A stretch of DNA of 64,000 nt from Candidatus Latescibacterota bacterium (GTDB taxonomy: Bacteria > Latescibacterota > UBA2968 > UBA8231): NCBI GenBank assembly GCA_963422735.1, contig OY730476.1, positions 4,000,880 through 4,064,879 on the forward strand. The letters run 5' to 3'. The notes under the pieces are model-generated. The model was given only the letters and a program-made list of their open reading frames with translations, searched no databases and was not told where the DNA came from. Numbering within the stretch: the first letter of the stretch is position 1; the number at the start of each line of letters is the position of its first letter. This document shows, in pieces, positions 2,327-58,475 of this stretch. A program made the translations under genes and the position numbers.

Positions 2327-4852
2327 ATGCATAGATATGCCGCGGTGCTGGCTGCCGCTCTCCTCATCTCCAAGGCAGCCGCAGCCGGAGCCGATGAACA
2401 ACCCTCCCGTACCGACACCAGCGAGGCCCAGATGCAGTTTTGGATGGCGCACCCCCAGCGCACCGCCCGCGCCGTGCGGGCTGAGGTGCCGCCGCGTCTC
2501 GACGGCGTCATCGACGACGAAATCTGGCTGCGCGCCCCTCTGCACGAGGGGTTCACGCAGAACGACCCGGACAACGGCGAGCCTTCGACGCAACGCACCA
2601 CCTTTCAGGTGGCCTACGACGACGATGCGCTCTACATCGCCGGCATCTGCTACGACACCCGCCCCGACAGCATCACCGCGCGTCTGGCGCGGCGCGACGA
2701 ATGGCGTGAGCGCGACCTGCTCGAGATCAACCTCGACCCCCACCACGACCATCAGACGGGCGTGTACTTCACCGTGGGTCCCTCCGGCTGGATCGAGGAC
2801 GGGATCATCTACAACGACGACGACTTCGACGATAGCTGGGACAGCGTGGCCGAGGTAAAGACGGCTCGACGCGCTGACGGCTGGAGCCTAGAGCTGAAGA
2901 TCCCTTACCACGTCCTGCGCTTCGGCGAAAAGGAGAGCTACACTTGGGGGATCAACGTCTCTCGCAAGATCTCCCGCCGCGCCGAGTGGTCGCAGTGGAG
3001 CTTTACCCCCCGAGGAGTTAGTGGCTACGTCTCTCGCTTCGGTCATCTCGAGGGGATCGAAGGCATCCGGCCGCAGCGCAGCCTCGAGATATTTCCCTTC
3101 GCCTTGGGCCGCAGCACCCTATCGACAGGGGACGGCGGCAGCGAGCACGACCTGTTCTCCTCGACCGGCCTCGACTTGCGCTACGGCCTGTCGTCGAATA
3201 TCTCCCTCAACGCCACCATCAACCCGGACTTCGGCCAGATCGAGGCCGATCCGGCCGTGCTCAATCTGGGTGTTTTCGAGACCTTTTTCCGCGAGCGCCG
3301 ACCCTTCTTTCTGGAGGGTATCCAGATATTCGAGTCGCCAGAGCCGAACATCGTCGGGATCCGCCGGCCCTCGCGCCTGTTCCACTCGCGGCGCATTGGC
3401 CGCCCGCCTTCGCGCTTTGACCTGCCCGAAGACAGCGAGGAGGTGGACCGTCCCCACAACACCACGATCCTCGGTGCCGTTAAGGTCTCGGGAAAGACCG
3501 CGAAACGCACGGCCTTTGGCCTGCTCAACGCCGTCACCGGCCGGGAGGAAGCACTCATTGACCAGCGCATTGTTAGCACCGAGACAGGCCGCGTTGATAC
3601 GGTGCGCCGCGATGTCGAGATTGAGCCGATCACCAACTACTTTATCGGTCGCGTACAACAGGATCTGCTCACCAACTCCACCGCCGGAGCCCAGCTCACC
3701 GCGGTCAACGGCCGCGGCTTGGACCCAGCCTACGTCGGCGCTGGAGACCTGCACGTGAAGTGGTGGGAGAACGCCTACCGCCTCTATAGCCGGCTCGCCG
3801 TCAGCCGCGCTGGGCAGGAGGAGGAGCGCGGCACTGGCTGGGAGGGTGCGCTCTACTTTCAGAAGACGGGCGGTGCCTTCGGCGGCCAAGCGTACGTGGA
3901 CGCGCAATCGCCCGAATTCCAAGCCAACGACCTAGGCTTCATGCGGCGCAACGACCGCATCCAAGCCGGTGCCCACATCTATCACGAGAAGCTCGACCCC
4001 TATTGGTTCGCCCGCCGCTCCGGGTTTAACCTCAATGTCTGGAACCACTGGAACTTCGCCGGTGAGAGGCTGTCCGAGGGCGTCAACTTCAACACCTGGC
4101 ACAACCTGCACAATTACTGGGGATTCTGGATGGGCCTCAGCCACAACTTCGCTGCCTTCGACGACCTAGCCACTCGCGGCGGACCGCTGATGCGCTCGCC
4201 CGCCCACACTTGGTTTGGCATGGACGTGTGGACCGACGACCGCAAGCCCATCAGTGCCTGGCTCGGCTGGAACGTCAGCGGGAGCCGGGGGGGCGACAAC
4301 CTCGGATCTTGGGTCGGCTTTGAGATCGAGCTGCGGCCCGTCTCCCAGCTCGAGTTGGAAATTGAGCCGGGCTACAACTTCAACCGCAACTTCGCCCAGT
4401 GGGTGGATAACGAGGACGAGGATGGCGACGGCGAGGACGACCGCTTCATCTTCGGCGAGCTTGAAAGCCGCGTCTTCGAGCTCGGCGTGCGCGGCACCTG
4501 GGCTTTCACCCCTAGCCTGAGCCTGCAGCTATTCGCGCAGCCCTTCGTGACAACCGGCGACTACGGTGCTATCAAGGAATTGGCGCGCCCGCGGTCCTAC
4601 GAGTTTTCTCCCTACGCCGGCCTTGAGGAAAACCCCGACTTCCGCCGCCGCGCACTGCGCTCCAACGTAGTGCTGCGCTGGGAGTACCGGCCCGGCAGTA
4701 CGCTCTTCGTCGTCTGGCAGCAGAGCCGGGACCGCGCCTTCGACGACGTTCGCGACCCCAAGTTCCGCCCGGCCGGCGACTTGGGCCGCGCCTTCGCCGA
4801 TGATGGCGACAATATCTTTTTAATCAAGCTCAACCGCTGGTTCGGGCTGTAG
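2327..4852 (+). CDS. secreted DUF5916 / carbohydrate-binding family 9-like protein
   Basis: 841-aa ORF with a signal-like N-terminus (MHRYAAVLAAALLISKAAAAGA). CBM9-like block: PPRLDGVIDDEIW...GFTQNDPDNGEPSTQRTTFQVAYDDDALYI. Long beta-rich C-terminal part. Clear paralogue of 38530-41013. Confidence 0.75.
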   Translation: MHRYAAVLAAALLISKAAAAGADEQPSRTDTSEAQMQFWMAHPQRTARAVRAEVPPRLDGVIDDEIWLRAPLHEGFTQNDPDNGEPSTQRTTFQVAYDDDALYIAGICYDTRPDSITARLARRDEWRERDLLEINLDPHHDHQTGVYFTVGPSGWIEDGIIYNDDDFDDSWDSVAEVKTARRADGWSLELKIPYHVLRFGEKESYTWGINVSRKISRRAEWSQWSFTPRGVSGYVSRFGHLEGIEGIRPQRSLEIFPFALGRSTLSTGDGGSEHDLFSSTGLDLRYGLSSNISLNATINPDFGQIEADPAVLNLGVFETFFRERRPFFLEGIQIFESPEPNIVGIRRPSRLFHSRRIGRPPSRFDLPEDSEEVDRPHNTTILGAVKVSGKTAKRTAFGLLNAVTGREEALIDQRIVSTETGRVDTVRRDVEIEPITNYFIGRVQQDLLTNSTAGAQLTAVNGRGLDPAYVGAGDLHVKWWENAYRLYSRLAVSRAGQEEERGTGWEGALYFQKTGGAFGGQAYVDAQSPEFQANDLGFMRRNDRIQAGAHIYHEKLDPYWFARRSGFNLNVWNHWNFAGERLSEGVNFNTWHNLHNYWGFWMGLSHNFAAFDDLATRGGPLMRSPAHTWFGMDVWTDDRKPISAWLGWNVSGSRGGDNLGSWVGFEIELRPVSQLELEIEPGYNFNRNFAQWVDNEDEDGDGEDDRFIFGELESRVFELGVRGTWAFTPSLSLQLFAQPFVTTGDYGAIKELARPRSYEFSPYAGLEENPDFRRRALRSNVVLRWEYRPGSTLFVVWQQSRDRAFDDVRDPKFRPAGDLGRAFADDGDNIFLIKLNRWFGL

Positions 4853-4984
4853 GAGCGGAAGGTGGTCAGATTATGGCAGGGGAACGAAGCGAGGTTGGGC
4901 GATGTACACCTTTCCTCATACGCACGAATAATAATCTGCTGGCCCCATAGCGCGTGTTCTGACGACTGACTCCAACTAAATTTT

Positions 4985-5027
4985 AAAACCCGTCGCGAAC
5001 GCGCATCGCGGCAGGTTTTCTGTTTTT
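4985..5027 (+). terminator. hairpin plus T-run downstream of the DUF5916 gene (possible intrinsic terminator)
   Basis: aaaacccgtcgcg-aacgcgcat-cgcggcaggtttt, about 12 bp with one mismatch and one G-U, followed by ctgttttt. Confidence 0.45.
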
Positions 5028-5040
5028 AGGAGCTATTGCA

Positions 5041-5133
5041 ATGACATTCCGACACAAGCACACGGCACGCACCTTTTCGCATAACGACAATGACAATAAT
5101 CCCGCCATGCAGACTCGATGGCGTTGGCCGTGA
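5041..5133 (+). CDS. candidate aspS leader peptide (30 aa) with an Asn/Asp codon run
   Basis: AGGAG at 5028-5032 lies 8 nt before the ATG at 5041. Peptide: MTFRHKHTARTFSHNDNDNNPAMQTRWRWP. Codons 15-20 are AAC GAC AAT GAC AAT AAT. Too short to appear in the ORF track; read by hand. Confidence 0.55.
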   Translation: MTFRHKHTARTFSHNDNDNNPAMQTRWRWP

Positions 5134-5154
5134 TCGGATTCTACCTTCACCCCA

Positions 5155-5192
5155 ACCCGCTGTCGCGCCTCGCGCCGATGGCGGGTTTTTTT
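5155..5192 (+). terminator. strong intrinsic terminator 30 nt upstream of the aspS start (candidate attenuator)
   Basis: 5155-5168 pairs with 5172-5186 (acccgctgtcgcgc / gcgccgatggcgggt; about 14 bp including two G-U pairs and one bulged C; 3-nt loop). It is followed by seven T (5186-5192). Confidence 0.7.
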
Positions 5193-5221
5193 ATGTCCAT
5201 CTGACAACCTAGAGGCTACCC

Positions 5222-6982
5222 ATGCACCGCTATCGCACCCATACCTGTGGCGAACTCCGCAAGCACCACGCCGGCCAAACCATTCGCCTGAGCGGCTGGA
5301 TCCACGGCCGCAGGGACCACGGAGGCATATTGTTCCTCGACCTGCGCGATCACTACGGCATTACCCAGCTCGTGATCTCGCCGGAGAATGACGCTGTGGC
5401 AACCGCAGCAAAGGTCCTCCGCGAGTCCGTAGTCCGCGTCGTAGGCAACGTGTGCGCCCGGTCGCCTGCGACCATCAATAGCGCGATGGAGACTGGAGAG
5501 GTGGAAATCGCCGTCCGCGAGCTAGAAGTGCTCTCGCCAGCCGCGCCGCTCCCTTTTTCCGTGGCGGAAGACTCCGAAGTAGGGGAAAGCACCCGGTTGT
5601 CCTATCGCTTCCTGGACCTGCGCCGGGCCGGGCTGCACCGCCGCATTCAGCTCCGCTCGGAAGTGATCGCCAGCATCAGACGGCGCATGACAAAGATGGG
5701 CTTTGCCGAGTTCCAGACGCCTATTCTCACCAGCAGCTCGCCCGAGGGTGCGCGAGATTACCTCGTGCCGAGTCGGTTATATCCCGGCCGGTTCTACGCG
5801 CTGCCACAGGCACCGCAGCAGTTCAAGCAGTTGCTGATGGTGTCCGGCTTCGATCGCTACTTCCAGATCGCGCCCTGCTTTCGCGACGAAGACGCCCGCG
5901 CCGACCGCTCCCCCGGCGAATTCTATCAACTCGATCTCGAAATGGCCTTCGTCGAGCAGGAGGATGTATTGGCTGTGGTCGAGGAGCTCTTTTTCGGTCT
6001 CTTTCGAGAATTCACCGATTGGGAAGTGCCCACGCCGCCGTTCCCGCGTCTTTCCCACGCCGCCGCCATGCTGCGGTTCGGTACAGACAAACCAGACCTA
6101 CGCTTCGGGCTCGAAATCCAGGACCTCTCCGAGATCTTTGCAGGCTCCTCGTTTAGGCTGTTCAGAGACATCGTCGCAGCAGGAGAGGTCGTCCGCGCCC
6201 TGTGCGTTCCCGGACTGGAGGGGCAGCCGCGCTCGTTTTTCGACAGCCTCGAAGCGTTCGTCAAAGAAGCAGGCGGCAAGGGGCTGGCGCACCTCATCAA
6301 CGGAGCGCAGGCCACAGGCTCAATCGCCGCAGCTCTAGAACAGAGCGTGCGTAGCCGCATTATCGAGGAATGTGCAGCCGCTCCGGGATCAGCCATTTTC
6401 TTCATCGCCGGACCACCAGCCGAGGCAGCGGCCCTAGCGGGACGGTTGCGCCTGCATCTGGCAGACCGGCTCGATTTGCGTCGCGAGGGTTGCTATGAAT
6501 TCTGCTGGGTCGTCGATTTTCCCATGTACGAATGGGACGCGGAACGCGCTTGTGCCGCCTTTTCGCACAACCCGTTCTCCATGCCGCAGGGGGGCATGAC
6601 TGCTCTGGAAGGCCAGCCGCCGCTGGATATCAAGGCGTATCAGTACGACATCGTCTGCAATGGCCTCGAACTGTCGAGCGGTGCCATCCGCAATCACAGA
6701 CCGGACATCATGTACAAGGCGTTTGAGATTGCCGGGCACTCGCGCCGGGAAGTGGATCGCAGGTTCGGGGGCATGATCCGCGCCTTTCGCTACGGCACTC
6801 CGCCCCATGGCGGCATCGCGCCTGGCATCGACCGCATCGTCATGCTGCTAGCGGACGAACCGAACATACGAGAAGTCATCGCCTTCCCGATGAACCAAAA
6901 TGCGCAAGATCCGCTCATGGGCGCGCCGGGCGAGGTGTCGCCTGAGCAGTTGCGGGAGCTACACATCGCAATCCGGGAGTGA
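5222..6982 (+). CDS. aspS: aspartate--tRNA ligase (bacterial type)
   Basis: 586 aa: MHRYRTHTCGELR...GWIHGRRDHGGILFLDLRDHYGITQLV; class II motifs FQIAPCFRDEDARADRSPGEFYQLDLEMAF and GIDRIVMLL. Confidence 0.97.
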   Translation: MHRYRTHTCGELRKHHAGQTIRLSGWIHGRRDHGGILFLDLRDHYGITQLVISPENDAVATAAKVLRESVVRVVGNVCARSPATINSAMETGEVEIAVRELEVLSPAAPLPFSVAEDSEVGESTRLSYRFLDLRRAGLHRRIQLRSEVIASIRRRMTKMGFAEFQTPILTSSSPEGARDYLVPSRLYPGRFYALPQAPQQFKQLLMVSGFDRYFQIAPCFRDEDARADRSPGEFYQLDLEMAFVEQEDVLAVVEELFFGLFREFTDWEVPTPPFPRLSHAAAMLRFGTDKPDLRFGLEIQDLSEIFAGSSFRLFRDIVAAGEVVRALCVPGLEGQPRSFFDSLEAFVKEAGGKGLAHLINGAQATGSIAAALEQSVRSRIIEECAAAPGSAIFFIAGPPAEAAALAGRLRLHLADRLDLRREGCYEFCWVVDFPMYEWDAERACAAFSHNPFSMPQGGMTALEGQPPLDIKAYQYDIVCNGLELSSGAIRNHRPDIMYKAFEIAGHSRREVDRRFGGMIRAFRYGTPPHGGIAPGIDRIVMLLADEPNIREVIAFPMNQNAQDPLMGAPGEVSPEQLRELHIAIRE

Positions 6983-7343: not shown

Positions 7344-7824
7344 CCCATGACTGCCCAACCATCGAGGAAGTCGTCGCCATGCACCACGCCCTGATTAGTG
7401 CTTTGGCGGCTCACTAGGCATCCGCGATGAAGGTGCCCTCGCCTCCGCACTCAGGCACCCCCAGCTTGGATACTACGACGGGCTCATTCAAGAAGCGGCT
7501 GCCCTTATGGAGAGCCTAGCCAACAATCATGCATTCGTGGACGGGAATAAGCGGGTCGCCTTTTTCGTCACCGACACCTTTCTGCGCATGGACGGCCGCT
7601 TCATCAACTGCGACAACGATGAGGCATACGCCTTCTTCATGCGTTCGTTCCGATTCACCGAATTGAAAAGGTCGAACCCCTCTCGGGGTCTTGACAGCCT
7701 ACGGACAGGAGCGCGGATAAGCCATTTTCCCACACCCATAAAAAAGTCGCTGAACTATTGCGACTGTTCTACTTCCCAAACGCGGCATTGGCGTCGTAAG
7801 GGCCCGTCAGAAGCTCCCTACTGA
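7340..7824 (+). pseudogene. doc: death-on-curing (Doc/Fic) family toxin, frameshifted
   Basis: Frame 1 from ATG 7340: MTHDCPTIEEVVAMHHALISALAAH*. Another frame continues FGGSLGIRDEGALASALRHPQLGYYDGLIQEAAALMESLANNHAFVDGNKRVAFFVTDTFLRMDGRFI (Fic/Doc motif HxFxDGNKR). The frames switch near 7397-7404. The C-terminal tail is atypically long. Confidence 0.7.
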
Positions 7825-8567: not shown

Positions 8568-9479
8568 TCAACGCGCATACCCATCGGGATTGTCCCGGCG
8601 CCAATTGGGCTGGTAGCCTTCCTTGGCGTCAAATCCATACGACGGCCCGATCTGGTTTTCGGACTGCCAAGGCCAAGCCTGGCCGCCGATGATGCGGAAC
8701 TGCTCGCCCTTACCGCAGAGCCAATAGAATATATGGGCATAGTAGCGCGCCGTGCCGTGCCCGCCGTAATACGCTCGCTGGAAATCGAAATCCTCCTCGA
8801 CGATCCAATCGCGCCGCGGGGGTGCCGTGCGCCAGTAATTGTACTTGAGCATCCGGCGGAGACCTTTGGCGGTGGACTTGCCGCGGCGATGGAGGATACT
8901 TTGGTGATGGATGCCGATGGTGCCGGCCGGGCCGTCGCAAAACAGGCCCCCTTCTTCGCTGTTGCGGGATGCCGGTTGGATGTGCGAGCCAGGTACTAGC
9001 TCGGTCGGCCCTAACTCCACGGGCGTGTCTTGGGGAAAGTAGAAGACCTCCAAAAAGCGCAGCTCCGGGCCGAAGACGTGATCGGCGTCTTGGTGCCAGC
9101 CTTGGGCTTCCATTGGGCATTCGGCCCGGTGGTGGCTGGCTATGATCGGCAGGCCGACGTTGGGGCCTAAAAGCGAGCGCATGGCACCGGCTAACTGGGG
9201 ATTGAGCAGGACGTGCTCGATGAACCAGTTCTCCAAGAAGATGGAACTCGGCTCGTGGGTAAAGCGGATGCGGTCGAGGTCGGCCTCGGTCAGGCCGTCG
9301 GGGATGTAGCTCGGGTTGGCCGGAATATCGCCGTCGAGCCAAGCGCAGGTGCGCTGGTTGATCCCGTCGGGCACGACGCCTTTGAGCAAAAGGTGGCCCT
9401 CGCGGCAGAATTTGAGGACTTGGGAGTCGGTGAGCGTCGGCTCGCAGTCAAAGGTGCGCTGGCATGGGTCGTAGTGCAT
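8568..9479 (-). CDS. PhyH family dioxygenase
   Basis: ORF 8568-9536 trimmed to ATG 9479, preceded by AGGAGA. Sequence: MHYDPCQRTFDCEPTLTDSQVLKFCREGHLLLKGVV...GWHQDADH...SILHRRG. Confidence 0.75.
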   Translation of the reverse strand: MHYDPCQRTFDCEPTLTDSQVLKFCREGHLLLKGVVPDGINQRTCAWLDGDIPANPSYIPDGLTEADLDRIRFTHEPSSIFLENWFIEHVLLNPQLAGAMRSLLGPNVGLPIIASHHRAECPMEAQGWHQDADHVFGPELRFLEVFYFPQDTPVELGPTELVPGSHIQPASRNSEEGGLFCDGPAGTIGIHHQSILHRRGKSTAKGLRRMLKYNYWRTAPPRRDWIVEEDFDFQRAYYGGHGTARYYAHIFYWLCGKGEQFRIIGGQAWPWQSENQIGPSYGFDAKEGYQPNWRRDNPDGYAR

Positions 9480-9641
9480 GGTCTTCTCCTGCGATAGTGG
9501 TGTCGTTTGTTTGACTAGCGGCCTGTTAACATGCATGAGCTAGCGCCTACAAGCTATCCAAATCCCGTCCATCCCGTCCACTAGGTTGCCTGCGCCATAA
9601 ATAGTTATACTCTCGCTCAGCAAAATTAAACGGAGCAAATC

Positions 9642-11825
9642 ATGGCGGAATCAAAAAAAATAGCCAGCAGCGGATTGCACATCAATCAGCGGCTCTATGC
9701 CCTCATCGCCGAGCAGATCGCGCCCGGGACAGGAGTGGACATAGATCACTTTTGGGCGGCACTGGGGAAGATCGTACAGGACTTGGGGCCAAAGAATCAA
9801 CAGCTACTTCAGCGCCGGGACGCCTTGCAGGCCCAGATCGACGCCTATCACCAAGAGCGGCGCGGCGAGCCGTTGGATCCCATAGGTTACCGGGCCTTTC
9901 TCAAGGCGATCGGGTACTTGATGCCCACGGGCGACGCACATCAGATCCGCACGGAAAACACCGACCCGGAAATCGCCTCGCTAGCCGGCCCCCAGCTAGT
10001 CGTGCCGGTTGACAATGCGCGCTACGCCCTCAACGCGGCGAATGCGCGCTGGGGTAGCTTGTACGACGCGCTCTACGGCACGGATGTGATTCTCAGCGAA
10101 GCGAGCGTAGAGTACAACGCCGAGCGCGGTGCCCAAGTCATCGCGCATAGCGAGGCATTCCTCGACGCGGTCGCGGGTCTCCAACAGGGTGCGTACCGGG
10201 AGGTGGTGGAGTTTTTTTTGCGCGAGGACGCTGGCGGGCAAACCTTGTGCGCCCGCCTCGCAAGCGGCGACGCGGTCGGCCTCAAAGACGCTGGACAGTT
10301 CGTCGGCTATGGGTGCGAGGCAGATCGGCTGAGCAGCGTCTTGCTCCGCCACAATGGGTTGCACATCGAAATCCAGATTGATCGCACCCATCCCATTGGG
10401 CGAACCCACCGCGCCGGCGTCAAAGACGTGCTCTTAGAAGCGGCTATTACCACCATCCAAGACTGCGAGGATTCCGTGGCCGCGGTCGATGCTGAGGACA
10501 AGGTCCTCGTCTATGGCAACTGGAACGGCCTAATGCAGGGCACACTAGAGGCAACCTTTGTCAAGGACGGGCAGACCCTGACGCGCCGCCTGTGCGCCGA
10601 CCGCCCATTTACCGCACCCAACGGCCACACCTTGACGCTATCCGGGCGCAGCTTGTTGCTAGTGCGCCACGTCGGCATCCACATGTACACAGATGCGGTG
10701 ACCACAGCCGACGGCGCGGAAATCCCCGAGGGCTTTCTCGACGCCATGGTCATCAGCTTAGCGGCGATCCACGACCTCAAGGGCCGCGGCTGCTACCGCA
10801 ACAGCAAGACCGGCAGCGTCTATGCGGTGAAGCCCAAACAGCACGGGCCGGACGAAGTGGCAGCAACGGTCGAGCTATTCGCACGAGTGGAGGAGGCATT
10901 AGGGCTAAGTAAAAACACCGTGAAGATCGGCATTATGGACGAGGAACGCCGCACCACGGTCAATCTCAGCGAGTGCATCCGCTGCGCCGCCGAGCGCGTC
11001 GTCTTTATCAACACCGGCTTTCTCGACCGGACTGGGGACGAGATCCACACCAGCATGGAGTTGGGTCCCATGTTGCCCAAGATGGAAATCAAAAACCAGC
11101 CTTGGCTCAGTGCTTATGAGGACTGGAATGTGGATGTCGGCATAGCAACCGGCTTGGTGGGAAGGGCGCAGATTGGCAAGGGCATGTGGACGATGCCCGA
11201 ACGGATGCGCGAGATGGTAGAGACCAAGATAGGCCACCCCCAAGCTGGGGCGACGACCGCTTGGGTGCCCTCGCCCACGGCGGCTACCCTGCACGCGCTG
11301 CACTACCACCAAGTCGATGTCTTTGAGCGCCTCGGCCATCTAGCCGGGCGGGAGCAGGCCTCGCTCGGCGCGATTCTCAGCCCTCCGGTGCTCAATCGCC
11401 AGCTCAGCCCCGAGGAGATCCAGCAGGAGCTAGACAACAACGCCCAAGGGATTTTGGGCTACGTAGTGCGCTGGGTCGGGCAAGGCATAGGCTGCTCCAA
11501 GGTGCCGGACATCACTCACATCGGCCTGATGGAAGATCGCGCCACCTTGCGAATTTCCAGCCAGCACATCGCCAACTGGCTGCATCACAAAATCGCCAGC
11601 GAGGAACAAGTGCGGGCGACCTTTGCGCGCATGGCGGCTGTGGTCGATGCACAAAACAGCGGCGACTCGGCGTACTGCCCCATGACACCCGACCTCGACG
11701 CCAGCGTCGAATTCCAAGCGGCGCTGGACTTGGTACTCAACGGCCGCACCGAACCAAACGGATATACGGAAAACGTGTTGCACAGGCGGCGCAGAGAAGT
11801 GAAGGCCGCCCGACGAATCGCCTAG
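9642..11825 (+). CDS. glcB: malate synthase G
   Basis: 727 aa, the typical MSG length, with an MSG-like N-terminus (...[31 protein letters not shown]...). Confidence 0.9.
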
Positions 11826-15834: not shown

Positions 15835-15970
15835 TTGTGCAGCTCCATTTTGGTAGCATTTTGCTATAAAAATACTATCTCGTCAAAATGGATCAAGCGC
15901 AAGGCTCGACGGCTAGCGGATTGGCAACAAGAAAACCCCAGGTCAATGAAGCCAACCTGGGGTTTAATAA

Positions 15971-16046
15971 TGGTAGCCCGTACGGGATTCGAACCCGTGT
16001 TACCGGCGTGAGAGGCCGGCGTCCTAGGCCTCTAGACGAACGGGCC
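15971..16046 (-). tRNA. tRNA-Glu (anticodon CUC), CCA encoded
   Basis: Reverse complement: GGCCCGTTCGTCTAGAGGCCTAGGACGCCGGCCTCTCACGCCGGTAACACGGGTTCGAATCCCGTACGGGCTACCA. It folds as a cloverleaf with anticodon loop CU-CUC-AC and closely resembles the bacterial tRNA-Glu scaffold. Confidence 0.95.
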
Positions 16047-16176
16047 AAAGTTCGTTTTTAGCCTAACAGTTTCAAAAAATAGAATTCTCAAACCGTATTG
16101 TCAAGGTGCTGCGGCCGAGCCGTTTGACAGTCGCGGATCGGCGTGGTACTGTTGCTCTGCACGAGGAGACGGCCCG

Positions 16177-38529: not shown

Positions 38530-41013
38530 TTATATGTGCAGCCAATAGTTAAACTTCACCAAGAAGATATTGGTCCCCTCGTCCACAAAACTGCGCCGTA
38601 GGTTGTATCCGGGGCGAAACGCGCCTAGGTCGGAGTCGTCTTGGCGGAACTGCGACCAGACGACGAAAAGGGTGCTGCCCGGCTTGTACTCCCAGCGGAG
38701 GACCGCGTTGCTTTGCAGCGAGCGGTTGCGGAAATCAGGGCTTTCCTCCGGGCCGGGATGCGCGATAAAAGAGTAGGAGCGCGGCCGCGCCAACTCCTTG
38801 AAGTTGGCGTATTGGCCTGCACTAATAAAAGGTTGTACATAGAGCTCAAAACTCAAGTCGCGGCTGAAGATGATGCTGGCCCGCGTCGTCAGATCGAGGG
38901 TTTGGCTATCTAGCTCCCCGTACACGAATTGATCGTCTTCGCCGTCGGCGTTCGCATCGAGGTTTTCGACCCATTGGGCATCGCTGAAATTCCAGCTATA
39001 GCGCGGCCGCAGGCTGACCTCGAACCGCGAGATCGGCCGGATGCGGATACTGCCGGAGACCTCGCGGTGGGTGCTGCCAGCCGAGTTGTTCTCCCACTCG
39101 AACTCGACCCAGCCGCTGACCATGAAGCGGTCGTCGCTTTCCAGCTCAATCTCAAAGCCGTCGCTGGCTGGCCTCGCGATTAGGGGGCCACCGCGAGTGT
39201 CGAGGTCGTCGAAGGCCCGCCATGTATGGTAGTAGTCGAAGTGGATCCACCAGTAGTTTTTGAGCTGGTGGTGGGTATTGAAGTCAAAGCCGTTTTGCAA
39301 GTTGGTGCGGTCGAAGTTCCACCTGCCCCAGCGGTTGAAGTTGTAGAAATTGCGGCGGAAGATGGCCCAGTCCTCTTCCTTGCGCAGCTGGATCCACAGC
39401 CAGGGGTTGTAGAAGTCGCTGCGCCATTGGAAGCCAAGGTCGTCGATCTCGAAATGCCGCGAATAGGCCTCCCACCAAAGCTCCCCGCGCAACCAGCCGC
39501 TTTCTTTGCTCAAGACCGCCATATTACCCAAACCGCCGCGGTGCTGATCATCTACCGTGGCGCGGCTGCCGGCGAACTGGCCCCAAAAGGTGTAGCCGTT
39601 GTCGCGCCATTTGAGGGTCCAATCTACGCCGCCAGTATAGGCGTCTCGCGCGCGGTCGCGCTGCACGGCCGTGCCCAAGAGGCCGACGTGCGAGTTACCG
39701 GCAAAGAGATCCTGCTTGACGCGACCGACGAGGAAGCGGGTGCGCGGCTCGACGAGAAAGTCGCGGCGGTCTTGGTACTCCGCGCCGGATACCTCGCGCA
39801 CCAGGGTCGTTGCACCGCCTGAAGGCGGCGAGGGAATCGTTGCAATGCGTGCGTATTCTTTGGCGGTAAGTGCCGTCAACAGGCCAAAAGTGGTCTTGGA
39901 TGCGGTCTTGCCCGTCAGCTTGGCCGCGCCCAGAATGGTGGTGGACTCGCTCTCATTGAGGGCATCGTGGCCGTCGGGCAGTGAGTGATAGCCGGGCTGG
40001 CGGCCGATGCGCCGCGAGTAGAACAGGTCAATTGGGGTGTCGAAAGCCTCGCCGTCCTTCACGAAGAAGGGGCGACGCTCTTCTTGGAACGTCTCAAAGA
40101 CCGAGAGGTTGAGTTCGGCCGGGTCGGCCTCCACTTGGCCAAAATCCGGGTTGATCGTGGCGTTGAGCGAGATGCTCGACGACAGCCCGTAGCGCAAGTC
40201 CGCGCCGGCATTGCCGAATAATTCCCGCGCGTCCGCAAAGGTGGAGCGGCCCACCGAGTATGGCAAAAGCTCCAGCGTGCGCGTGGATCTGATGTCTGCT
40301 AAGCCCTCTAAGTGGGCAAAGCGAGAGACCGAGCCGCTTTCCTTGCGCGGGATCATGACCCAGAAAGCCTGCTCCTTCTTGCGGCTGATATAGCGGGCGA
40401 TATTGATGCCCCAGTCTCCGCCGCTGCTAAAGCGGAGGTTGTGGAACGGGATCGCAAACTCCACGCTCCATCCCTCGTCGCCGATGGTATGCGCGGATTC
40501 CCACACGCCGTTCCAAGTGTCGTTGTCCCAACCGTAATCCTTGATTACAGCGTCGTAGATCGACCCGCCGGCATACACTGCAAAGGCGTAGCCGGTCTGA
40601 TGGTCGTGATGCGTGTCTAAGCTGACTTGGATCCAATCGGCTTCGGTCCACTGGTCGCGGCGCACCAAGCGCGAGACGATCTGCTTGGGTGCCGGATCGC
40701 AGGCCATGACCCCTACGTAGAGCGCCTCGTCGTCGTACGCCAACTGTACGGTGGTCTTTTCGCTTGCGGGCTGTCCCTCATCGGGCTCGCGCTGGACGAA
40801 ACCCGTAAAGATCGGAGCCTGCTGCCACACCGGGTCGTCGAGTATGCCGTCAATCTGCGGGGGGGCACCTTCTAGGCGCACAGCATTGAGTGCGCGGTCG
40901 GGCGCTTGATGGGCGTACAAAACGCGGGGGCCGAGGACCGCACAGGCCACCGATCCCAAGCAGTACAGATAGTTGATCAGCCGAGAGCATACGTCTGTCT
41001 TGCGGTTTTGCAT
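38530..41013 (-). CDS. secreted DUF5916 / CBM9-like protein (paralogue of 2327-4852)
   Basis: 827 aa: PPQIDGILDDPVWQQAPIFTGFVQREPDEGQPASEKTTVQLAYDDEALYV... Same C-terminal architecture, ending FLVKFNYWLHI. Confidence 0.75.
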   Translation of the reverse strand: MQNRKTDVCSRLINYLYCLGSVACAVLGPRVLYAHQAPDRALNAVRLEGAPPQIDGILDDPVWQQAPIFTGFVQREPDEGQPASEKTTVQLAYDDEALYVGVMACDPAPKQIVSRLVRRDQWTEADWIQVSLDTHHDHQTGYAFAVYAGGSIYDAVIKDYGWDNDTWNGVWESAHTIGDEGWSVEFAIPFHNLRFSSGGDWGINIARYISRKKEQAFWVMIPRKESGSVSRFAHLEGLADIRSTRTLELLPYSVGRSTFADARELFGNAGADLRYGLSSSISLNATINPDFGQVEADPAELNLSVFETFQEERRPFFVKDGEAFDTPIDLFYSRRIGRQPGYHSLPDGHDALNESESTTILGAAKLTGKTASKTTFGLLTALTAKEYARIATIPSPPSGGATTLVREVSGAEYQDRRDFLVEPRTRFLVGRVKQDLFAGNSHVGLLGTAVQRDRARDAYTGGVDWTLKWRDNGYTFWGQFAGSRATVDDQHRGGLGNMAVLSKESGWLRGELWWEAYSRHFEIDDLGFQWRSDFYNPWLWIQLRKEEDWAIFRRNFYNFNRWGRWNFDRTNLQNGFDFNTHHQLKNYWWIHFDYYHTWRAFDDLDTRGGPLIARPASDGFEIELESDDRFMVSGWVEFEWENNSAGSTHREVSGSIRIRPISRFEVSLRPRYSWNFSDAQWVENLDANADGEDDQFVYGELDSQTLDLTTRASIIFSRDLSFELYVQPFISAGQYANFKELARPRSYSFIAHPGPEESPDFRNRSLQSNAVLRWEYKPGSTLFVVWSQFRQDDSDLGAFRPGYNLRRSFVDEGTNIFLVKFNYWLHI

Positions 41014-56161: not shown

Positions 56162-57085
56162 TCAAGAAAACTGCGTAATGCGAATCGTGTAGTGGAACAC
56201 CTCATTGGTGAATTCAGCCCAACTCTCCCCGTCGTGCGCCAGATCGTCGAGCAGGAACACCTTCTCGACGCCCATCTGATCGAGCCTAGAGCGCATCTCG
56301 GCCGTTATGACACCGGCGATCAACATATTGACGCAATTCGGAGGCGTAGCTATGGCCCCAAGTCTTTCGAGCGCACCTGCCGGGTCCTTCCCTCCTTTGA
56401 TCTCGATGGTTGCTACATCTCGTGTAGTCCCAGATAGCTCTTGCCTGAAGAGGATGTCAGGTTCCGATCCATAGCGCATCGAATACCCATTCGGCAATTG
56501 GAACTCCGTCTTTGCGTCGTTCTGTTTGACAGTCAGATGACGGCGGTCCAGCCAGTTTCTAATGCGGGTCTTGACCAGATCCTCGGCATCTTGACCGATG
56601 ATGTTGCGGAATGTCCCATCTAGTCCAACCCCCATGTTGGCGATGATGTTTCGATATCCGTTATCCAGTGTCCATTTAGACGTACCTTCGATGATAGAAC
56701 AGATCACCGCATTGTATAGTCGAGCCACGCATTTACTCTGAGATTCATTTATAGGAGTCTTGCGAGTGCCGTCTTCCCAAGAGGCTACACTGTTAGCAAT
56801 ATCCGCGACCCGTTTCTGGGGCAGTAGGGCGATTCCCCGATAGTATTGGGATAGCTGGGGATGTTTGCGAAGAAATACCGGATTGGCAAAAACGAACTTG
56901 GGGTCAATGTTCGATCTGCTGATGTAATTCCATGCCTGTTGGCTGATCATCAGGTCTTTCAAGGGATGGTATTCCGGTTCTTCTTCCAAGTTGGCAATAA
57001 GGGTACGCAATGTACAATCAGTACGCTCTTGTATTCGTGCGGACATCAGGGTCGATTGGAACTGTGCATCGTGTAAGCTAGTCAT
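56162..57085 (-). CDS. putative type II restriction endonuclease
   Basis: Its ATG at 57085 overlaps the methylase stop by 8 nt (ATGACTAG). PD-(D/E)xK-like SEPDILF...ATIEIKGGKD. AT-richer than the flanks. Family not identified. Confidence 0.55.
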   Translation of the reverse strand: MTSLHDAQFQSTLMSARIQERTDCTLRTLIANLEEEPEYHPLKDLMISQQAWNYISRSNIDPKFVFANPVFLRKHPQLSQYYRGIALLPQKRVADIANSVASWEDGTRKTPINESQSKCVARLYNAVICSIIEGTSKWTLDNGYRNIIANMGVGLDGTFRNIIGQDAEDLVKTRIRNWLDRRHLTVKQNDAKTEFQLPNGYSMRYGSEPDILFRQELSGTTRDVATIEIKGGKDPAGALERLGAIATPPNCVNMLIAGVITAEMRSRLDQMGVEKVFLLDDLAHDGESWAEFTNEVFHYTIRITQFS

Positions 57086-58475
57086 CTGTGCGTACCCACA
57101 TGTAAACACACTTTCTTATTTCACGTCTGCCAAAGCGACGCATCTGCTGGCTTGAATTCCCTTTGCCTCGGGGTAACATCCAAATCTCCTCGCAACGGAA
57201 TCCTGACTGCTCGGCAAAGTCGGACAAGATCAGGTCCGTAGGGACTTCCTCGCCGTGATACTGAACGTTGTCGTTCACCATGAGCACCGTGCCGTCGGGT
57301 CGCAATATCCGCCCTAGCTCCGCGATGATGATCGCCATTTCAAAAAAATAACCTTCGATTAGACGGATCACATGCCTGTTCCCCAATTCATCGATGTGTT
57401 GATTGAGGATGGCGAGAATCTCGTGAATAGCACCTTGGCCTTCATACATTTGAATTGCGTTCGCCAACAAGGATGAATCTTCTCTGTATATTTCTTGCAG
57501 CCACTCCCTTTTCGATCTGTTTTCTACCGTCGCTGTCAGCATACGCTGTCGTAAGTTGGAAAATGCGTCTTGGTCGTATCCGAGCCAAGCTAGTTCGAGT
57601 GCATAAGTTCGCGTATAGTCATACCGATTGGCGTACGGGGGTGAAGTGATGACCATATCGAATCCGCCGCTTGGCAGAAAACGCAACAGCTCGAGGCTGG
57701 AACCAATTTGAAACGCTGGGTATCCTCCCCCATATTCCTGCTGTAGAATGGCGATATCCTGAGTCATTTCGAACAGACGATCACCAACGGCTTGTTCCAA
57801 TGCCAGTATCGGACCTTTGTCAACCTTGCTTCTAAGATTCCTTGCAGCCCGATGGTCCCACCGCAAGTATTGACCATCCTTGCGGGTGTAACTCACATCT
57901 TCCAAAACGGTCATACAGGCTAGGTCGAGCAACTTCTTGATGCCAGAATCCTCAATCGTATCGATGAACCTTCTCGCCTTAGCGATTGCAATTTCCGTCT
58001 CGGCTGGGAAGGCCGCTTCCGTTATCCTGACATGGGTAAACGAATGCTCAGGCTCGGGGACATCGCCTGATCTAATGCTGTCGAGCAGCGCAGCTCCGGC
58101 CGATTCAAATCTTTCTCGAGACAGCCCGTTGGCAGCCTCGGCGATCCCGTGGCCGACCATGACACCTACAGGCATAATCTCGATTCCCGTGGCTCGTAAA
58201 CCGCGTGCGGTGGCTACAAGGGGAGTCGTACCAATGCCGCAAAAAGGATCGAGGACGTTTGTTGGGTGGAACTTTTGTATAAAGCTCTCGACTAGCGAAC
58301 GAGAGAATCCCTCCTTGTACTTCATCCATCTCAGACCGGGAACGCGACGATTGCCCTGATACGACACGGTCTTGCGTGTGAACGCGCTGTTGACTTCTAT
58401 ACGACTCCCGAAACGCTCTTCGAGAGATCGACGTTCTTGGACACGGCCTCCGTTAGGGGAAATCGCAGGCTGCAT
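57078..58475 (-). CDS. DNA methyltransferase (N4-C/N6-A type, SPPY)
   Basis: 465 aa: VLDPFCGIGTTPLVA (motif I) and DMVITSPPYANRYDY (motif IV). Confidence 0.85.
   Translation of the reverse strand: MQPAISPNGGRVQERRSLEERFGSRIEVNSAFTRKTVSYQGNRRVPGLRWMKYKEGFSRSLVESFIQKFHPTNVLDPFCGIGTTPLVATARGLRATGIEIMPVGVMVGHGIAEAANGLSRERFESAGAALLDSIRSGDVPEPEHSFTHVRITEAAFPAETEIAIAKARRFIDTIEDSGIKKLLDLACMTVLEDVSYTRKDGQYLRWDHRAARNLRSKVDKGPILALEQAVGDRLFEMTQDIAILQQEYGGGYPAFQIGSSLELLRFLPSGGFDMVITSPPYANRYDYTRTYALELAWLGYDQDAFSNLRQRMLTATVENRSKREWLQEIYREDSSLLANAIQMYEGQGAIHEILAILNQHIDELGNRHVIRLIEGYFFEMAIIIAELGRILRPDGTVLMVNDNVQYHGEEVPTDLILSDFAEQSGFRCEEIWMLPRGKGNSSQQMRRFGRREIRKCVYMWVRTDD

Follow-up and report, generated by a model that had tools for sequence, protein, structure and literature searches.

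The window analyzed here is a stretch of 64 kilobases (kb) from a contig of Candidatus Latescibacterota, an uncultivated soil bacterium, and it carries the gene aspS for a bacterial-type aspartyl-tRNA synthetase (AspRS). Directly upstream of aspS and on the same strand lie two tandem elements, unit 1 (4873-5027) and unit 2 (5028-5192), each with an open reading frame (ORF) that contains asparagine (Asn, N) codons, and an intrinsic terminator. We propose that the region 5028-5192 is probably a leader-peptide transcription attenuator of aspS, which senses charged tRNA-Asn and, less strongly, charged tRNA-Asp.

The product of ORF 5222-6982 scores 791 bits against NF001750 (aspartate--tRNA ligase), and the Pfam domains tRNA-synt_2, GAD and the anticodon OB fold are all found in it. 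The AspRS sequence also puts the window in Candidatus Latescibacterota, with 83-93% identity to the related loci L001-L004, while the next genome matches reach at most 61% and belong to other phyla. Additional relatives (AspRS 65-88% identical) were obtained by a protein search together with the contigs that encode them. The original prediction for this DNA was a translated leader with Asn and aspartate (Asp, D) codons, alternative hairpins and a terminator before aspS. When the sequence was re-read, all coordinates listed there upstream of aspS were present base for base, and conservation in relatives supports the arrangement. The features are given below, with lengths in nucleotides (nt).

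5028-5032, plus strand: Shine-Dalgarno sequence (SD) of leader 2, AGGAG, with the ATG 8 nt downstream; GGAG and this spacing do not vary among the 5 copies
5041-5133, plus strand: leader-2 ORF of 30 codons, MTFRHKHTARTFSHNDNDNNPAMQTRWRWP, with the stop codon TGA at 5131-5133; orthologues of 29-30 codons in L002, L004, L102 and L103
5083-5100, plus strand: regulatory codons AAC GAC AAT GAC AAT AAT (NDNDNN), codons 15-20; proposed ribosome stall site
5101-5108, plus strand: segment 1, CCCGCCAT; its part CGCCAT (5103-5108) pairs with segment 2, giving the putative anti-antiterminator
5116-5127, plus strand: segment 2, CGATGGCGTTGG; invariant in 5/5 copies including third codon positions; partner of segment 1 or segment 3
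5152-5165, plus strand: segment 3, CCAA-CC-CGCTGTCG; 3' strand of the antiterminator 2:3 and 5' arm of terminator 2
5176-5192, plus strand: segment 4, CGATGGCGGGTT; 3' arm of terminator 2; includes the T7 tract (5186-5192)
5222-6982, plus strand: aspS, 586 amino acids, bacterial-type AspRS; the regulated gene

Leader 2 and its alternative RNA helices

To judge the N/D run we counted the short ORFs (10-60 codons, both strands) of the 64-kb window. Only four out of 934 contain at least three Asn codons within six codons, and two of these four adjoin each other within the 370-nt region upstream of aspS. Leader 2 is the sole short ORF among the 934 in which six out of six codons are N/D codons. 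By these counts, chance does not account for the N/D run in the window DNA. Also among the four is a 57-codon ORF on the plus strand (15888-16061); it overlaps the sole tRNA gene of the window, tRNA-Glu(CUC) at 15971-16046 on the minus strand, and is almost certainly spurious.

The five copies of unit 2 (89% identity overall in the alignment) all keep the SD, the ATG and the frame of leader 2. The sole indel within the ORF has a length of 3 nt, and a 1-nt indel sits outside the ORF in the loop of terminator 2. Across the copies the N/D run appears as HNDNDNNP, ANNNDNNP, SNSDSNNNP or ADNIDNNP, constantly ending in (D/N)-N-N-Pro, and in all five leaders the stop codon follows the last Asn codon at a distance of exactly 10 codons. 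Invariant columns account for 49% of codons 2-14, 50% of the N/D run and 78% of the terminator. In the stretch comprising segment 1, segment 2 and the stop codon the value is 91%, which counts third codon positions as well.

The motif CGCCAT of segment 1 (5103-5108) is complementary to ATGGCG (5118-5123) in segment 2. Segment 2 can alternatively pair with segment 3, CGAUGGCG-UUGG (5116-5127) with CCAA-[CC]-CGCUGUCG (5152-5165), to form the antiterminator 2:3. This helix comprises 12 base pairs (bp) with a 2-nt CC bulge, and is thus longer than the 7 bp that had been counted at first. Terminator 2 is a GC-rich hairpin (5154-5187) followed by T7 (5186-5192), and it ends 30 nt before the aspS ATG at 5222. 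The energies calculated with ViennaRNA are -8.4 kcal/mol for 1:2, -19.2 kcal/mol for 2:3 and -23.6 kcal/mol for 3:4. For the nascent RNA as far as position 5168, the same program gives the 2:3 helix as the minimum free energy structure (MFE). Segment 1 as a whole (CCCGCCAT, 5101-5108) is furthermore complementary over 8 bp to ATGGCGGG (5178-5185). This perfect pairing, also part of the original prediction, is present in the window but specific to it, the relatives having ACGGCGGG or ACAGCGGG instead.

In the five copies all 12 pairs of terminator 2 are 100% paired, with one pair running through CG, UG and UA. The 12 pairs of antiterminator 2 are likewise 100% pairable, with GC/GU changes only, and changes in segment 3 remain compatible with both of its partners via G-U pairs. 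Six pairs of the 1:2 hairpin are invariant and a seventh is found in four of the five copies. The consensus ground state predicted by RNAalifold for the five copies consists of the 1:2 hairpin and the terminator.

The spacing of these parts suits a translating ribosome, the footprint of which extends approximately 10-12 nt 3' of the A site. Segment 1 begins directly after the last Asn codon, so that a ribosome awaiting Asn-tRNA at this codon would cover CCCGCCAT. The stop codon (5131-5133) is placed 4 nt 3' of segment 2, and a terminating ribosome would therefore cover segment 2. At the sequence level we thus find a leader ORF, codon enrichment, a terminator, a mutually exclusive antiterminator and, with the ribosome footprint assumed, the geometry that characterize the class of leader-peptide attenuators.

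Three further ORFs in this stretch were considered as genes and rejected. The minus-strand ORF 4983-5207 (74 amino acids) has no Pfam match; it spans unit 2, which is absent from L001 and L003, so that it could not be conserved there. The plus-strand ORFs 5090-5212 and 5118-5204 are affected by differences in the relatives, which are without the ATG at 5090, and the 1-nt loop indel (5166-5175, where L103 differs) breaks both frames.

Unit 1 and the distribution of both units in relatives

A hairpin and T-run at 4985-5027 had been noticed upstream of leader 2, and we could identify it as the terminator of a second unit, which precedes unit 2 and is older. In the window this unit 1 has the following parts.

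4873-4950, plus strand: altered leader-1 ORF, MAGERSEVGRCTPFLIRTNNNLLAP, with the Asn codons AAT AAT AAT at 4927-4935; homologous to leader 1 of the relatives from ...RTNNN onward only
4950-4966, plus strand: unit-1 segment 2, GCGCGTGTTCTGACGAC; 5' strand of antiterminator 1; holds the ancestral leader-1 stop codon TGA (4960-4962)
4989-5027, plus strand: terminator 1, with the stem CCCGTCGCG (4989-4997) and CGCGGCAGG (5007-5015), then TTTTCTGTTTTT (5016-5027); a C x A mismatch in the window

Relatives were searched for a short N/D-rich ORF and a terminator before aspS, as the original prediction had demanded. All 14 distinct loci with an AspRS at least 68% identical possess one or two Asn-rich leaders, each with an intrinsic terminator, directly upstream of aspS and on its strand. 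The neighbor further upstream varies among these loci and may be a DUF5916, HEPN, helicase or GHL10 gene, or FliM on the other strand. Five of the loci, namely the window, L002, L004, L102 and L103, have unit 2 after unit 1. Unit 1 alone is found in L001, L003/L082, L100 and L101, and in the more distant L081, L083-L084 and L104-L106. A comparable ORF within 400 nt upstream of aspS was found in none of 76 loci from other phyla. The Asn-rich leader is also absent in two relatives at 65-67% AspRS identity, where the absence in L108 is not fully certain due to a run of N. A scan of metagenome contigs with the pattern GCGCGTGYYCTGACGRCN{15,45}CCGYCGCG gave 15 matches, all 15 of them by chance in GC-rich coding DNA of unrelated organisms.

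Unit 1 is present in all 14 distinct loci and its leader ORF is intact in 13 of them. Its plan in the relatives consists of a promoter-like TTGACN, a spacer of 16-18 nt and TAnnTT, followed by the leader, GCGCGTGTTCTGACGAC, the terminator CCCGTCGCG..CGCGGCGGG and a run of Ts. Leader 1 of the relatives reads M(M/I/L)TRQNDRT..NNNP(L/P)APLRVF up to the stop codon. For unit-1 leaders the distance between the last Asn codon and the stop is exactly 8 codons in 11 out of 13, while the total length ranges from 21 to 37 codons. Indels within both leaders are in frame, and the ORFs stay intact at 21-37 codons. The 17-mer GCGCGTGTTCTGACGAC is identical in nine of the 14 distinct loci and differs at one to three positions in most others, L106 being more diverged.

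The alignment of unit 1 (14 sequences, 63% column identity) is diverse enough for a test of the structure. Antiterminator 1 is formed between GCGUGUUC..CGAC of the leader end and GUCG.GAACACGC of the 5' arm and loop of the terminator. In this helix 93.3% of the cells are paired and compensatory changes occur at 4 pairs in 6 cells (U-A to C-G, C-G to U-A, A-U to G-C). None of 500 shuffles matched the covariation score or the paired fraction, and slid controls pair to only 13-51%. The duplex of L002 reaches -20.0 kcal/mol compared to -8.9 +/- 2.2 kcal/mol in shuffles, of which none in 1000 was as good. The helix is contained in the MFE of the nascent RNA in 11 out of 14 loci, the exceptions being L083, L105 and L106. 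The leader-1 stop codon falls within the antiterminator strand. Unit 1 seems to represent a three-segment design, apparently without a segment 1 and with its stop codon inside the antiterminator strand. In a local alignment of unit 1 with unit 2, made to see whether unit 2 could be a duplicate of unit 1, only the terminator region is similar (z-scores 1.6-4.4).

The promoter-like element before leader 1 was located at 2810-2850 in L001, 2615-2652 in L004, 2800-2830 in L081 and 362-397 in L104; its counterpart in the window (4895-4935) is disrupted. The -10 form TAnnTT(TG), seen as TATCTTTG, TACCTTTG and TAACTTTG, resembles the -7 motif of Bacteroidota and is combined here with a TTGACN -35 element. 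The promoter-like element ends 7-11 nt before the leader-1 ATG and no SD is found there, while leader 2 and aspS have a clear GGAG(G). For this reason the mRNA from which leader 1 is translated may be leaderless or nearly so. Runs of N, meaning masked or unresolved bases, occur in the aspS upstream regions of L083 (2595-2694) and L108 (1263-1362). Around the run in L083 a direct repeat, AAACTCGCAAACGACTGATCGAGCGAAGCGAGAGCAGTCGTC, is found three times, namely 5' of the run, immediately before it and immediately after it, extending into the promoter, and L105 has similar repeats.

Compared with L001 and L002, unit 1 of the window has been altered at four places. A deletion of approximately 36 nt fuses the -10 region to about leader codon 10, and the ancestral ATG and the first codons are lost. 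A change of TTG to TAG at 4948-4950 introduces a stop four codons before the ancestral one. Terminator 1 has a C x A stem mismatch and reaches -16.6 kcal/mol compared to -19.9 to -24.2 kcal/mol in relatives, and its loop is changed. Translation of the new in-frame ORF (4873-4950) would still pass through the three AAT codons. Due to these changes, including the weaker terminator, the antiterminator is the MFE of the window unit even in full-length RNA. We conclude that unit 1 of the window has probably decayed and is locked in read-through, and therefore that unit 2 is probably the working switch there.

The reverse is found in other genomes. In L100, L101 and L003 terminator 1 is followed by the spacer that comes after terminator 2 elsewhere, implying that the similar 3' arms GGCGGGTTTT recombined. 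L001 has the aspS ATG joined directly to the SD of leader 2. Judging from these junctions, unit 2 has been deleted in at least two different ways in close relatives. At least one intact unit is retained in every genome examined.

The surroundings of aspS form a variable spot with defence and toxin-like genes, and the attenuator always stays with aspS. Downstream of aspS the window contains a Fic-domain fragment (7507-7824), and aspS in L100 is flanked by a Fic gene and a small ORF. A nucleotidyltransferase/HEPN pair lies upstream of aspS in L082, and of a HEPN-like reading frame matching the one of L082 only the 3' end was read upstream of aspS in L003. In L101 HsdM is encoded downstream of aspS. 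The window contains two large paralogous DUF5916 genes, 2327-4852 on the plus strand and 38530-41013 on the minus strand, with CBM9 detected in the first only; L081 and L082 have DUF5916 genes close to aspS as well. PhyH-family dioxygenase genes (961-1992 and 8568-9536, both minus strand) are found on either side of the aspS region, and a malate synthase G gene (9642-11825, plus strand) lies 2.7 kb downstream of aspS. At 56162-58475 on the minus strand an ORF for an XcyI-like restriction endonuclease (PF09571) partly overlaps one for an N6/N4 DNA methylase, which is likely a type II restriction-modification pair.

The amino acid presumably sensed, the proposed mechanism and its alternatives

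The run of mixed codons in the window had suggested a combined Asn/Asp sensor. To evaluate this we compared the codon shares of the leaders with those of the window genes. Asn makes up 22% of the codons in unit-1 leaders and 14% in unit-2 leaders compared to 2.8% in the genes, whereas the share of Asp is 4% and 5%, respectively, compared to 5.9%. Asn is therefore enriched 5- to 8-fold and Asp is not enriched. The rarer Asn codon AAT constitutes 52-56% of the leader Asn codons and 28% of those in genes. Most leaders contain a single Asp codon, often beside the Asn run, so that the two Asp codons of the window run are a local variant. Because Asn and AAT are over-used and Asp is not, the element is most fittingly seen as a sensor of Asn that may have a minor input from Asp, in place of the combined sensor suggested at first.

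An Asn sensor upstream of a gene for AspRS calls for an explanation, which may lie in the type of the enzyme. The window AspRS may well be non-discriminating, and its sequence gives limited direct support for this. The best PDB matches of its anticodon-binding domain are the Asp/Asn ligase chains 4rmf and 4wj3 with approximately 91 bits, compared to 80-83 bits for the same domain against Thermus AspRS1 and Escherichia coli AspRS. In its RRDHGG motif the enzyme has a His, corresponding to His31 of the non-discriminating AspRS of Pseudomonas aeruginosa, whereas Leu occupies this position in E. coli AspRS and Thermus AspRS1. At the position of P. aeruginosa Gly82 the window AspRS has Ala. We take His31 and Gly82 (P. 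aeruginosa numbering) to be determinants of non-discrimination, and the residue of E. coli AspRS at the Gly82 position is presumably Lys. Genes for asnS, gatCAB or asnB were not found among the window ORFs scanned, and a tRNA-Asn, which could have been inspected for the U1-A72 identity, was found neither in the window nor in the 14 related loci.

In bacteria without asparaginyl-tRNA synthetase (AsnRS) a non-discriminating AspRS puts Asp on tRNA-Asn, which is then amidated by GatCAB, and in some species this is the sole route to asparagine (PMC2330236). Control of AspRS by sensing Asn codons would make sense if the enzyme is non-discriminating and supplies Asp-tRNA(Asn) to GatCAB. As the supply of Asn-tRNA(Asn) in that route is dependent on AspRS activity, a shortage would sensibly be met by more AspRS.

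The features, their conservation and geometry, and the covariation in unit 1 are observed in the DNA of the window and its relatives, and the following mechanism would account for them. The 30-codon leader would be translated from its own SD. If Asn-tRNA(Asn) is plentiful, the ribosome would reach the stop codon at 5131-5133 and cover segment 2 (5116-5127). Segment 3 could then pair with segment 4, and the terminator (5154-5187 and T7) would halt transcription 30 nt before aspS. If Asn-tRNA(Asn) is scarce, the ribosome would stall towards the end of the N/D run, at codons 5092-5100, and thereby mask segment 1 (5101-5108). This would leave segments 2 and 3 to form the 12-bp antiterminator, so that the terminator does not form and aspS is transcribed. 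Unit 2 would be the second of two tandem Asn-leader attenuators, with the promoter carried by unit 1 (4873-5027) in the relatives. As that promoter precedes leader 1, unit 2 would be transcribed as the second attenuator in series. We infer the stalling, termination and read-through in vivo, and likewise the indirect pathway to Asn-tRNA. Overall we consider it likely that unit 2 works, or did so until very recently, as a ribosome-mediated attenuator that responds to Asn.

Several observations weigh against this interpretation. Folding recovered the 1:2, 2:3 and 3:4 helices, but the fold of the whole region is ordinary with a z-score of -0.97, and 31 out of 200 shuffles fold as well. The 2:3 duplex taken alone (-13.9 kcal/mol) is equalled by 72 out of 1000 dinucleotide shuffles of the single sequence. 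The covariation values of terminator 2 are reached by 309 out of 500 shuffles, the five sequences being 89% identical. Covariation in unit 2 is minimal, and the evidence for its pairing is one of consistency and not of statistical covariation. Since the scores of the single-sequence fold and of the 2:3 duplex are unimpressive, the case rests mainly on what the relatives show. Among them, antiterminator 1 of L100 and of L101 has uncompensated mismatches at the helix ends, and the U-tract is poor in L105. The 1:2 helix (-8.4 kcal/mol) is far weaker than 2:3 (-19.2 kcal/mol), so that an untranslated transcript might read through and not terminate. Unit 2 was lost repeatedly in close relatives (L001, L003, L100, L101) and is dispensable where unit 1 is intact. 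If the genomes encode AsnRS, an Asn sensor on aspS is without an obvious rationale. Finally, the original prediction had seen no convincing promoter between the upstream hairpin and the leader-2 SD. The conserved unit-1 promoter is indeed not intact in the window, where only a weak consensus match remains (TGTACA-18-AATAAT, 4903-4932). The lack of a promoter at that place is, however, explained by unit 1, as the promoter of the relatives lies upstream of leader 1; in the window, transcription could possibly enter the leader by read-through from the DUF5916 gene.

The repeated loss also invites the explanation that unit 2 is an evolutionary relic or a redundant copy, the terminator of which may lower aspS transcription somewhat while there is no response to Asn and regulation takes place elsewhere. 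Its absence from close relatives via at least two different deletions (L001 versus L100, L101 and L003) would fit, as would its weak covariation and a 2:3 duplex that is not significant alone. We nevertheless regard this as improbable. In the window it is unit 1 that is degraded, with its lost start, premature TAG and weaker terminator, whereas unit 2 keeps the SD, the ATG, the frame, the N-N-Pro motif, the 10-codon spacing and the invariant segments 1 and 2, and each genome examined retains at least one intact unit.

Translation of the ORF is predicted from the sequence, and a terminator/antiterminator pair would serve any mechanism that binds a protein or a tRNA. Many genes of aminoacyl-tRNA synthetases (aaRS) are controlled in such a way. 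The ORF might accordingly be incidental, with AspRS binding to a tRNA-like fold as in E. coli thrS, or with a divergent T-box. A T-box or other Rfam family was, however, not matched at E <= 10 beyond sub-threshold terminator matches, and an incidental ORF would hardly stay open through in-frame indels in 14 lineages with 5- to 8-fold enrichment in Asn and a fixed distance from the last Asn codon to the stop. We give this explanation a somewhat smaller chance than the relic. The conserved C-terminal motifs ..PAIRARWRWP and ..PLAPLRVF could alternatively hint at functional small peptides, or the terminated transcript could be a trans-acting small RNA, the adjacency to aspS being incidental or secondary; functions in trans have been described for an attenuator RNA and a leader peptide of Sinorhizobium, rnTrpL and peTrpL, among others. 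The C-terminal conservation nevertheless reaches synonymous positions and coincides with the pairing segments, which points to a constraint on the RNA, while the N-terminal halves diverge freely. The units are also always found directly upstream of aspS on the same strand, whatever the upstream gene, and a function in trans would add to attenuation and not replace it. Of the three explanations we hold this one to be the least probable, and very improbable in itself.

Relation to known attenuators and biological meaning

Leader-peptide attenuation is a textbook mechanism. The amino acids for which it has been described are few (Trp, His, Phe, Leu, Thr, Ile/Val), and most cases come from Proteobacteria and Actinobacteria. 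Unit 2 shares with the enterobacterial trp and his attenuators the 1:2/2:3/3:4 geometry, the position of the regulatory codons just 5' of segment 1 and the placement of the stop codon. It differs in its target, which is a biosynthetic operon in these systems. The similarity to Trp_leader concerns the terminator only, and unit 1 is apparently without a segment 1. An Rfam scan of 4700-5400 at E <= 10 yielded only sub-threshold terminator matches to Trp_leader (14.6 bits, with a gathering threshold of 41) and isrK, and the T-box covariance model had no match in the same region and at the same cut-off.

The original prediction knew of no described Asn/Asp leader attenuator for aspS. This is in agreement with our literature search, in which, subscription journals not being covered, neither an Asn- or Asp-codon leader nor leader-peptide control of aspS was found. 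The nearest published item is a predicted, uncharacterised motif in the 5' untranslated region, with a terminator, upstream of aspS in Shewanella (PMC2659441). Among aaRS genes, pheST, trpS and leuS are reported to have classical attenuators, the latter two in Streptomyces (PMC1262725). The attenuators of E. coli pheST (with the leader pheM) and of Streptomyces trpS and leuS are alike in that an aaRS gene follows a short leader rich in codons linked to the enzyme, and in the mutually exclusive antiterminator and intrinsic terminator. In contrast to them, the codons found here are those of Asn while the gene is aspS, and sensor and enzyme would match only through the indirect Asp-tRNA(Asn) route. 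Further differences are the occurrence in Latescibacterota, the two tandem units and the lack of a sequence or Rfam relationship.

A closer parallel in logic is found in Clostridium acetobutylicum, where, according to Saad et al. (2012, 2013) as cited in PMC4206432 and PMC4052509, a tRNA-Asn-responsive T-box controls the transamidation operon. According to these accounts the charging of tRNA-Asn sets the enzymes of the indirect pathway, non-discriminating AspRS and GatCAB, by means of a terminator and an antiterminator, which is the same logic as proposed here. In the clostridial system as described there the tRNA is bound directly, whereas a translating ribosome is proposed for the window, in which a T-box motif is lacking.

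Switches of the same specificity in series exist as tandem T-boxes and tandem riboswitch aptamers. The arrangement upstream of aspS is alike in placing two same-specificity switches on one leader, which should sharpen the response. It is different in that both switches are leader-peptide attenuators here and that lineages lose one or the other.

The mechanism proposed from these sequences belongs to the trp/his/pheST class. What would be new is the specificity for Asn, the target aspS via indirect aminoacylation, the phylum and the tandem units with alternate loss. With regard to the complete picture we lean only slightly towards it: the ribosome would gauge charged tRNA-Asn and thereby set the level of a non-discriminating AspRS, in what would be the first amide-specific leader attenuator and the first one on aspS, with tandem units that are lost alternately and a unit 1 that may be leaderless and of a three-segment design.

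If this is true, the mechanism gains Asn specificity and extends to Latescibacterota, an uncultivated phylum within the FCB group. The switch would be a ribosome-based counterpart of the clostridial tRNA-Asn T-box, and thus a case of convergent regulatory logic. The tandem units could serve as a small natural experiment on the redundancy of RNA switches, as unit 2 was deleted at least two times and unit 1 decayed in the window. This would represent a testable extension of the classical mechanism and not a new principle. For the lineage itself it might provide a useful physiological marker, a readout of physiology from the sequence only, which predicts that Asn-tRNA(Asn), and perhaps all asparagine, is made via the indirect route of non-discriminating AspRS and GatCAB.

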